Below are positions 63,775 through 64,000 of a stretch of 64,000 bases of DNA, one piece after another (within the stretch, counting starts at the first letter, position 1; each line of letters begins with the position of its first letter). The notes under the pieces are model-generated. The model had not been told where the DNA came from. It worked only from the letters and a program-made list of their open reading frames with translations, and searched no databases. Made by a program: the position numbers and the translations under genes. The stretch is from NCBI RefSeq assembly GCF_003790525.1, contig NZ_CP033635.1; one strand, given 5' to 3'. Source of the DNA: Escherichia coli. Lineage in GTDB: Bacteria; Pseudomonadota; Gammaproteobacteria; Enterobacterales; Enterobacteriaceae.

Positions 63775-63806
63775 AGGATACACTCTGGAGTCGACTCCAG
63801 AGTCAA
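63775..63806 (-). promoter_or_regulatory. zntA promoter with ZntR (MerR-type) operator
   Basis: On the minus strand TTGACT - 20-bp spacer containing the palindrome ctctggagtcgactccagag - TATCCT; the long spacer is the MerR-family hallmark. Confidence 0.75.
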
Positions 63807-63813
63807 GTTTTAT

Positions 63814-64000
63814 CAGAGATACAGCGAGCGGACGATGAGGAAGTGACCAGCAAAGTAGCAGGCCGCAGCAATCGCGTTGTCCGCACGGAAGCGGCGGCGA
63901 TAGTGACTACCCAGCCAGACAAAGTTACTGATAAACAGCAACGAAGCGCCGACAAACGCAGAGAGTGCCGGAGCGGTCGGACGGAAGAACCACAGTTCAC
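63814..64000 (-). CDS. yhhN: YhhN-family membrane protein, C-terminal part (gene starts beyond window end)
   Basis: Minus-strand frame ending at TGA 63814..63816 reads ...[60 protein letters not shown]; no start in window, so absent from the ORF track in this frame. Confidence 0.75.

Follow-up and report, generated by a model that had tools for sequence, protein, structure and literature searches.

Genes and Promoter Elements at the yhhN–zntA Junction

The window analyzed in this study is a stretch of 64,000 nucleotides of Escherichia coli DNA, and close to its end the minus strand carries the 3' part of yhhN followed by zntA. The upstream open reading frame encodes the C-terminus of a YhhN-family protein (Pfam YhhN, PF07947, E 5.7e-11) and is labeled yhhN, lysoplasmalogenase, in RefSeq. 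The 732-aa protein encoded downstream contains the Pfam domains HMA, E1-E2_ATPase, and Hydrolase (P1B-type ATPase). The features of the junction are listed below.

63816..64000, minus strand: 3' part of yhhN, the last 61 codons; the gene continues past the end of the window
63815..63813, minus strand: yhhN stop codon TGA, 6 bp (TAAAAC) before the -35
63806..63801, minus strand: -35 hexamer TTGACT of PzntA, by pattern match, in agreement with PMC3431237
63800..63781, minus strand: 20-bp spacer CTGGAGTCGACTCCAGAGTG, by pattern match; PMC1526738 also gives a 20-bp spacer
63782-63803, no strand: perfect 22-bp palindrome ACTCTGGAGTC/GACTCCAGAGT, by repeat finder (11 of 11 positions complementary, 0 gap)
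63780..63775, minus strand: -10 hexamer TATCCT of PzntA, by pattern match
63767..63768, minus strand: predicted zntA transcription start, A residues 7–8 nt past the -10, from promoter geometry
61541..63739, minus strand: zntA coding sequence, 732 aa, Zn/Cd/Pb-exporting P-type ATPase (Pfam and RefSeq), with its ATG at 63739

Read along the minus strand, the order is TAT CTC TGA, TAAAAC, TTGACT, CTGGAGTCGACTCCAGAGTG, TATCCT, TCGGTTAATGAGAAAAAACTTAACCGGAGGATGCC, and ATG. A sequence-only reading of this DNA had proposed that a ZntR-activated promoter of zntA, composed of TTGACT, a 20-bp spacer, and TATCCT, directly follows the yhhN stop codon. These elements were found on the minus strand at the positions that it had given, with yhhN and zntA on the same strand. 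The palindrome that it described also exists, but its size and place differ: a 10/10 palindrome within the spacer had been claimed, whereas the repeat has 11 of 11 complementary positions, spans 22 bp, and reaches 3 bp into the -35. Likewise, the -35 does lie close to the yhhN stop codon, although at a distance of 6 bp and not of about 8 bp. The pattern TTGACT-N20-TATCCT had a single match in the window, and 100 dinucleotide shuffles gave none. MerR-type promoters are recognized by an over-long spacer of 19–20 bp between sigma-70 hexamers, by a dyad-symmetric operator that fills this spacer, and by a metal-efflux gene under the control of the promoter; here, the spacer is 20 bp, the palindrome fills it, and zntA lies downstream. 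A standard promoter scan, which considers spacers of 16–18 bp, misses PzntA.

The ZntR site has been described as the 22-bp palindrome ACTCTGGAGTCGACTCCAGAGT inside a 20-bp promoter spacer, with zntR usually located apart from zntA (Permina et al., 2006; PMC1526738), and the palindrome in the window is identical to the sequence printed in that study. The -35 of PzntA is given as TTGACT, and the footprints of MerR, CueR, and ZntR span the -35, the spacer, and the -10 (Hobman et al., 2012; PMC3431237); the comparison with the published footprint that the earlier reading had suggested thus agrees with the elements found here. ZntR sits on the spacer, and its zinc-bound form distorts the DNA, which makes the misaligned -35 and -10 usable (PMC9189660; PMC1526738; PMC3431237). 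PzntA is switched from repression to activation in a zinc-dependent manner, according to a 2022 study (PMC9189660), which counts the spacer as 19 bp, against the 20 bp found here and in PMC1526738.

Over its final 600 bp, the window shows 100% identity to E. coli SMS-3-5 and further strains, and matches were found in 5,425 of 5,426 complete E. coli genomes, where the annotation was always yhhN and zntA. When 106 nt were tested, the identity was at least 99% in 5,354 of these 5,425 genomes, and when 201 nt around the site were compared with K-12 MG1655, the whole 73-bp spacer between yhhN and zntA matched exactly. Judging from its sequence, the feature is almost certainly PzntA, the sigma-70 promoter of zntA, with a 20-bp spacer that carries the ZntR operator. 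Because the palindrome equals the published ZntR site, the promoter is already known; the assignment to ZntR-activated zntA is correct and adds nothing new, and the -35, 20-bp spacer, 22-bp palindrome, -10, and flanking yhhN and zntA are those of PzntA/ZntR in E. coli K-12, with no difference in the promoter. PzntA is a textbook promoter of the ZntR/MerR type and is widely used in zinc and cadmium biosensors. The primary papers on PzntA and ZntR of E. coli K-12 are those of Brocklehurst et al. in 1999 and Outten et al. in 1999, which PMC1526738 and PMC3431237 cite. Entries for zntA and yhhN were absent from the start-site and operon supplements of the SMRT-Cappable-seq study and of Kim 2012.

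Probable Transcription from yhhN into zntA

A terminator scan detected no terminator-like site on the sense strand between yhhN and zntA. An intrinsic terminator consists of a GC-rich hairpin and a U run on the sense strand; after yhhN the hairpin is present and the U run is absent, and a T run follows the palindrome on the opposite (plus) strand only. The palindrome was therefore rejected as a terminator of yhhN. In Term-seq data from K-12, there was no 3' end on either strand in the region 3606200-3606599 and none within 50 nt of the yhhN stop codon, and the sole 3' end associated with yhhN was at 3605771, 20 nt into the gene (Adams et al., 2021; PMC7815308). This 3' end, which lies outside the window, suggests that yhhN transcripts may be terminated early or processed close to the beginning of the gene. 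The same study reported a Rho termination region at K-12 3606645, 194 nt into zntA (supplementary file 2), where the upstream/downstream reads were 142/43 without bicyclomycin (BCM), a Rho inhibitor, and 201/212 with BCM (Rho score 3.48, p = 7.9e-11) (Adams et al., 2021; PMC7815308). Homology mapping from K-12 places this region in the window as follows.

63540..63550, minus strand: position homologous to the K-12 Rho region

With a promoter 6 bp past the yhhN stop codon and no intrinsic terminator, polymerase coming from yhhN should cross the operator into zntA. The earlier reading had made the same point, and it is consistent with the lack of a sense-strand terminator, the lack of a Term-seq 3' end, and the occurrence of a Rho region only inside zntA. 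The Term-seq and Rho data are compatible with transcription extending across yhhN into the beginning of zntA, where Rho soon halts it, with yhhN as a possible origin; the Rho region could equally reflect basal transcripts from PzntA. On the plus strand, antisense to zntA, the operator palindrome followed by CAAGTTTTAT (63782-63813) scores as terminator-like and could halt antisense transcription leaving zntA.

A Predicted Hairpin over the zntA Ribosome-Binding Site

A repeat finder detected an imperfect inverted repeat that joins the promoter to the start of zntA, the core of which is a 15-bp stem formed by GUAUCCUUCGGUUAA and UUAACCGGAGGAUGC. The segments concerned are listed below, together with a short repeat of the operator at the start codon.

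63781..63767, minus strand: 5' arm GUAUCCUUCGGUUAA, comprising the -10 and discriminator plus the final base of the spacer; apart from about 2 nt, it precedes the predicted +1
63755..63741, minus strand: 3' arm UUAACCGGAGGAUGC, which holds the Shine-Dalgarno sequence and ends 1 nt before the ATG
63749..63745, minus strand: zntA Shine-Dalgarno sequence GGAGG, inside the 3' arm
63729..63737, minus strand: GTCGACTCC, which repeats the operator core (63795..63787) in direct orientation at the zntA start codon

An RNA that spans the end of yhhN and the beginning of zntA is predicted to form two adjacent hairpins, the operator hairpin and the 15-bp stem. A 62-nt piece had a folding energy of -24.1 kcal/mol (z = -5.96), and none of 200 shuffles was as stable. 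In an RNA beginning at the predicted +1, the ribosome-binding site was predicted to be open (-11.6 kcal/mol, z = -0.69). The energy required to open positions -15 to +5 was 23.4 kcal/mol in the read-through RNA vs. 6.6 kcal/mol in the RNA from the predicted +1, and it was 6.0 kcal/mol for a start placed 3 nt upstream of that position. When the 12 nt of the -10 and discriminator alone were shuffled, the opening energy was 10.4 ± 1.3 kcal/mol, and the native value was not reached in any of 200 shuffles. We also compared long with short sequence contexts for 31 candidate ribosome-binding sites in the window: the effect was 16.9 for zntA and 5.4 for the next site, with a median of 1.0.

The transcript of PzntA should lack the 5' arm because a promoter cannot transcribe its own -10. 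Given the geometry of the predicted +1, the arm would be present only in RNA that begins upstream of PzntA; its predicted absence from the promoter's own transcript is robust to a start shift of 3 nt in E. coli and less so in Yokenella, Atlantibacter, and Cronobacter. The repeat GTCGACTCC, which lies in the context ATG TCG ACT CC, could in addition pair with the left half of the operator in read-through RNA. Operator-core repeats of 9–13 nt are common to many genera. In Klebsiella-, Enterobacter-, and Kluyvera-like loci, the repeat reaches 12–13 nt (GTCGACTCCAGAG), with synonymous codon positions also preserved, and in one locus (L094) the MFE fold pairs the left half of the operator with the start-codon repeat.

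A search of Rfam 15 yielded no family at the gathering score, the two matches being miRNA hairpins with 20.4 and 15.5 bits against 80 and 90. In a literature search, no paper was found that ties zntA to a Shine-Dalgarno hairpin or leader, and a database of predicted attenuators could list one. The pairing predicted between the -10 and the Shine-Dalgarno sequence appears to be a new observation of this study, made by computation.

Conservation of the Junction and of the Predicted Pairing in Enterobacterales

A genome scan based on ZntA mostly picked up the generic P-type ATPase motif and left five useful gammaproteobacterial loci, so further loci were collected from YhhN homologues and the contigs that carry them. 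These gave 12 named Enterobacterales loci, to which Citrobacter and Enterobacter were added from the genome scan. In all named loci, yhhN was followed by zntA, with TTGACT, a 20-bp spacer holding the operator, and a -10. A scan of metagenomes for the operator returned 80 loci; in 58 of them the operator was preceded by a YhhN gene and followed by a ZntA gene of the same strand. The distance from the yhhN stop codon to the -35 was 5–8 bp in Escherichia, Citrobacter, Enterobacter, Kosakonia, Pluralibacter, Yokenella, and Kluyvera, 3–15 bp in almost every one of the 48 distinct metagenomic regions analyzed, and 10–39 bp in Pantoea, Erwinia, Atlantibacter, Shimwellia, Paramixta, Buttiauxella, and Cronobacter. 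The 12 loci found through YhhN (L082-L093) and L001 and L002 all have the gene order rsmD, yhhL, yhhM (opposite strand), yhhN, zntA. We know of no functional link between YhhN and zinc export.

Three of these loci (Cronobacter, L083; Buttiauxella, L085; and GCA_022846635.1, L082; positions 2128-2170) have a GC-rich hairpin inserted between the yhhN stop codon and the -35, in the form GGGCGG...CCGCCC or in the form GCGG..CCGC followed by TTTT. The hairpin of L082 was not called by a simple terminator scan of that locus, and the idea that taxa with longer spacers carry a terminator is unsupported by simple scanning of this kind. The genome GCA_022846635.1 (AP025685.1) is labeled Salmonella enterica serovar Choleraesuis, and its YhhN is 73% identical to that of E. 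coli; because of this value and of a zntA leader unlike that of other Enterobacteriaceae, the label looks doubtful.

The contrast in masking was examined in 15 named Enterobacterales loci and 48 distinct metagenomic yhhN–zntA regions. It recurred in every Enterobacteriaceae type, with opening energies of 16–27 kcal/mol in read-through RNA vs. 5–10 kcal/mol in promoter-started RNA, and was weaker in the Erwiniaceae types and weak in Erwinia typographi and some Pantoea-like loci. The -10 itself varies (TATCCT, CATACT, TATGCT, TACGCT, TACCCT, TAAGCT, TAGGAT, and TAAGAT), and the partner segment changes alongside it; the loop has a length of 11–16 nt and a variable sequence, and the arms remain complementary. 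In the Erwiniaceae (Pantoea, Erwinia, and Paramixta), different sequences pair at or beside the Shine-Dalgarno sequence. In Paramixta (L093, 2140-2235), the partner of the Shine-Dalgarno region is UUUCCGAUGAGAA, located before the -35 instead of at the -10, and the resulting long-range helix surrounds the entire promoter (z = -6.2). The longer the interval from the stop codon to the -35, the weaker was the masking (Spearman rho -0.73, p = 0.0013, n = 16, uncorrected for phylogeny).

For the covariation analysis, a covariance model was built from ten 49-nt sequences and used to align 33 distinct sense-strand sequences, and 12 pairs of the outer helix, in which the 5' partner lies upstream of the predicted +1, were compared with 500 shuffles. 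Paired cells amounted to 90% (83.4 ± 0.7% in the shuffles), double-sided changes were found in 7 of the 12 pairs (2.0 in the shuffles), and the covariation score was 0.213 (0.109 in the shuffles); each of these values was reached by 0 of 500 shuffles, a count that is not a probability, and the sequences are related and the covariance-model alignment leans toward structure. Slid partners were 29–52% paired. The double-sided changes include U-A to G-C in seven distinct sequences. A gapless, CCGG-anchored alignment of nine taxa gave 75.9% vs. 68.7% paired, with double-sided changes in five pairs. G.U pairs are frequent on the sense strand, which argues for an RNA of the zntA strand. These results indicate that the pairing is kept by compensatory changes across Enterobacteriaceae.

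Controls for the Predicted Masking Effect

The promoters of copA and cueO in E. coli, which have divergent upstream neighbors and 19-bp spacers, were used as controls and displayed no masking: the opening energies in the long and short contexts were 7.8 vs. 5.3 kcal/mol for copA and 5.9 vs. 5.7 kcal/mol for cueO. When RNAalifold was applied to a plain MAFFT alignment, the consensus was weak and the covariation term was almost nil, because indels shift the register. In an arm-swap matrix, cognate and non-cognate arms were inseparable within the core group, since all of them are anti-Shine-Dalgarno sequences of the CCUYCGG type. Two Vibrio loci (L005, 2260-2265; L067, 2311-2327) have a same-strand gene for a MatE-family transporter before the zntA promoter, and in V. 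bivalvicida the TGA stop codon of this gene is inside the -35 TTGACC. No masking was predicted for these two loci, in which the MatE gene ends at or in the -35, or for Photorhabdus, in which yhhN is 186 bp upstream.

Proposed Fold-Back Mechanism and Alternative Explanations

We give a probability of roughly 0.5 to the reading that translation of zntA is masked by fold-back in transcripts read through from yhhN, with the -10 and discriminator of PzntA acting as an anti-Shine-Dalgarno arm in the read-through RNA and Rho then ending this RNA early in zntA. The read-through RNA would carry the -10 and discriminator, which are complementary to the zntA ribosome-binding site, and the two arms would pair as a 15-bp hairpin that conceals the Shine-Dalgarno sequence. 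In some genera, the operator-core repeat at the start codon may assist this folding. The RNA started at PzntA would have no 5' arm, and its ribosome-binding site would be open. The untranslated read-through RNA would be shortened by Rho early in zntA. If the read-through RNA is both masked and ended by Rho, ZntR and zinc alone would set the output of ZntA, even though no terminator is present.

The mechanism, if true, would explain how a tightly regulated promoter can lie 3–8 bp past the stop codon of another gene without a terminator, and it would be a case of IS10-style fold-back inhibition in a core chromosomal gene of metal homeostasis. With modest weight, it would mean that the -10 region of a promoter can have a second function in RNA, that of insulating translation from transcription arriving from upstream, which would offer a general solution for compact junctions that lack room for a terminator. 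PzntA reporters with upstream transcription or a replaced native leader would then differ from the chromosome.

The complementarity between the -10 and the Shine-Dalgarno sequence might have no function in RNA, in which case the feature would be the known promoter only; we regard this as a serious but doubtful alternative. The resemblance of the C/T-rich TATCCT to an anti-Shine-Dalgarno sequence, shared ancestry, or a constraint at the DNA level could each produce it, and it accords with the ability of the CCU-type arms of any core species to mask any core ribosome-binding site, with the near absence of a covariation term from RNAalifold on the plain alignment, and with the Vibrio promoters that abut a same-strand gene without masking. 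However, it does not readily account for the z-score of -5.96 of the E. coli hairpin, for the position of zntA as an extreme outlier among the candidate ribosome-binding sites of the window, or for loops that vary between 11 and 16 nt while the arms stay complementary. The double-sided changes, with U-A replaced by G-C in seven distinct sequences, also speak against it, as do the lack of an effect at copA and cueO and the use by Erwiniaceae of other sequences at or next to the Shine-Dalgarno sequence, in Paramixta from another upstream segment. Covariation between the -10 and the Shine-Dalgarno sequence is likewise left unexplained if insulation acts mainly at the DNA level, with ZntR blocking polymerase or polymerase occluding PzntA and the hairpin being secondary. 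The ZntR footprint (-35, spacer, and -10) does stand in the path of the polymerase, 6 bp past the yhhN stop codon. We consider such insulation unlikely as the main explanation; it is compatible with the hairpin model.

The conserved order of the two genes, found in 15 of 15 named Enterobacterales loci and in 58 metagenomic loci, would also be expected of a true yhhN–zntA operon in which read-through usefully feeds ZntA, for example at a basal level, and a microarray study of Yersinia pestis gives yhhN–zntA as one co-expressed unit (PMC2231364). This is improbable in our view, given a ribosome-binding site predicted to be buried in the read-through RNA, a Rho termination region early in zntA, and the possession by zntA of its own regulated promoter. 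Finally, the main role of the palindrome might be to form the 3' end of yhhN, by terminating transcription or by shielding the yhhN mRNA with a hairpin, with negligible read-through into zntA. The RNA hairpin of the palindrome (9 bp, -14.9 kcal/mol) begins 10 nt past the stop codon, and some relatives have extra GC-rich hairpins between yhhN and the -35. Nevertheless, the sense strand has no U run and the terminator-like call falls on the opposite strand only; together with the exact match to the ZntR site and the lack of Term-seq 3' ends in K-12 3606200-3606599, this makes a role as the yhhN 3' end very improbable.

Comparison with Known Systems

The fold-back inhibition of IS10/Tn10, reportedly described by Davis, Simons, and Kleckner in 1985 (a reference listed in PMC13181058), is said to protect the element against external promoters. 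Incoming transcripts reportedly hold a segment from upstream of the element's own start that pairs with the translation initiation region, and the element's own transcript is without it. At zntA, a segment upstream of the promoter's own start is likewise predicted to be complementary to the Shine-Dalgarno region. The two cases differ in that zntA is a core chromosomal metal-efflux gene and not a transposase gene, and in that the candidate masking arm is the promoter's own -10 and discriminator. By analogy, IS10 appears to be the closest precedent, with the zntA side of the comparison drawn from predicted pairing.

In pyrC and pyrD of enteric bacteria, a 5' hairpin over the Shine-Dalgarno sequence depends on the transcript start, and the alternative starts, a few nucleotides apart within one promoter, respond to the nucleotide pools of the cell. 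The contrast at zntA is instead between read-through from an upstream gene and the promoter's own start. PmerT/MerR of Tn501 and PcopA and PcueO with CueR have in common with PzntA a 19–20-bp spacer with a dyad operator and activation by DNA distortion. PcopA and PcueO, with their 19-bp spacers, divergent upstream genes, and lack of masking by upstream sequence, differ in these respects from PzntA, which has a 20-bp spacer and yhhN on the same strand.

Other Observations

The plus strand of the window at 61200-61508 contains an open reading frame of 102 aa between zntA and tusA that encodes a very hydrophobic product and is annotated as hypothetical in SMS-3-5 (WP_000385055.1). In K-12, there is no annotated gene between zntA and tusA, and the gap is much shorter. 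A promoter of the form TTGACT-operator-TAnnnT was also found directly before a gene for a MerR-family regulator (Pfam MerR_1 and MerR-DNA-bind), and not before zntA, in L125 (2421-2911) and about 20 other metagenome loci among L094-L173.
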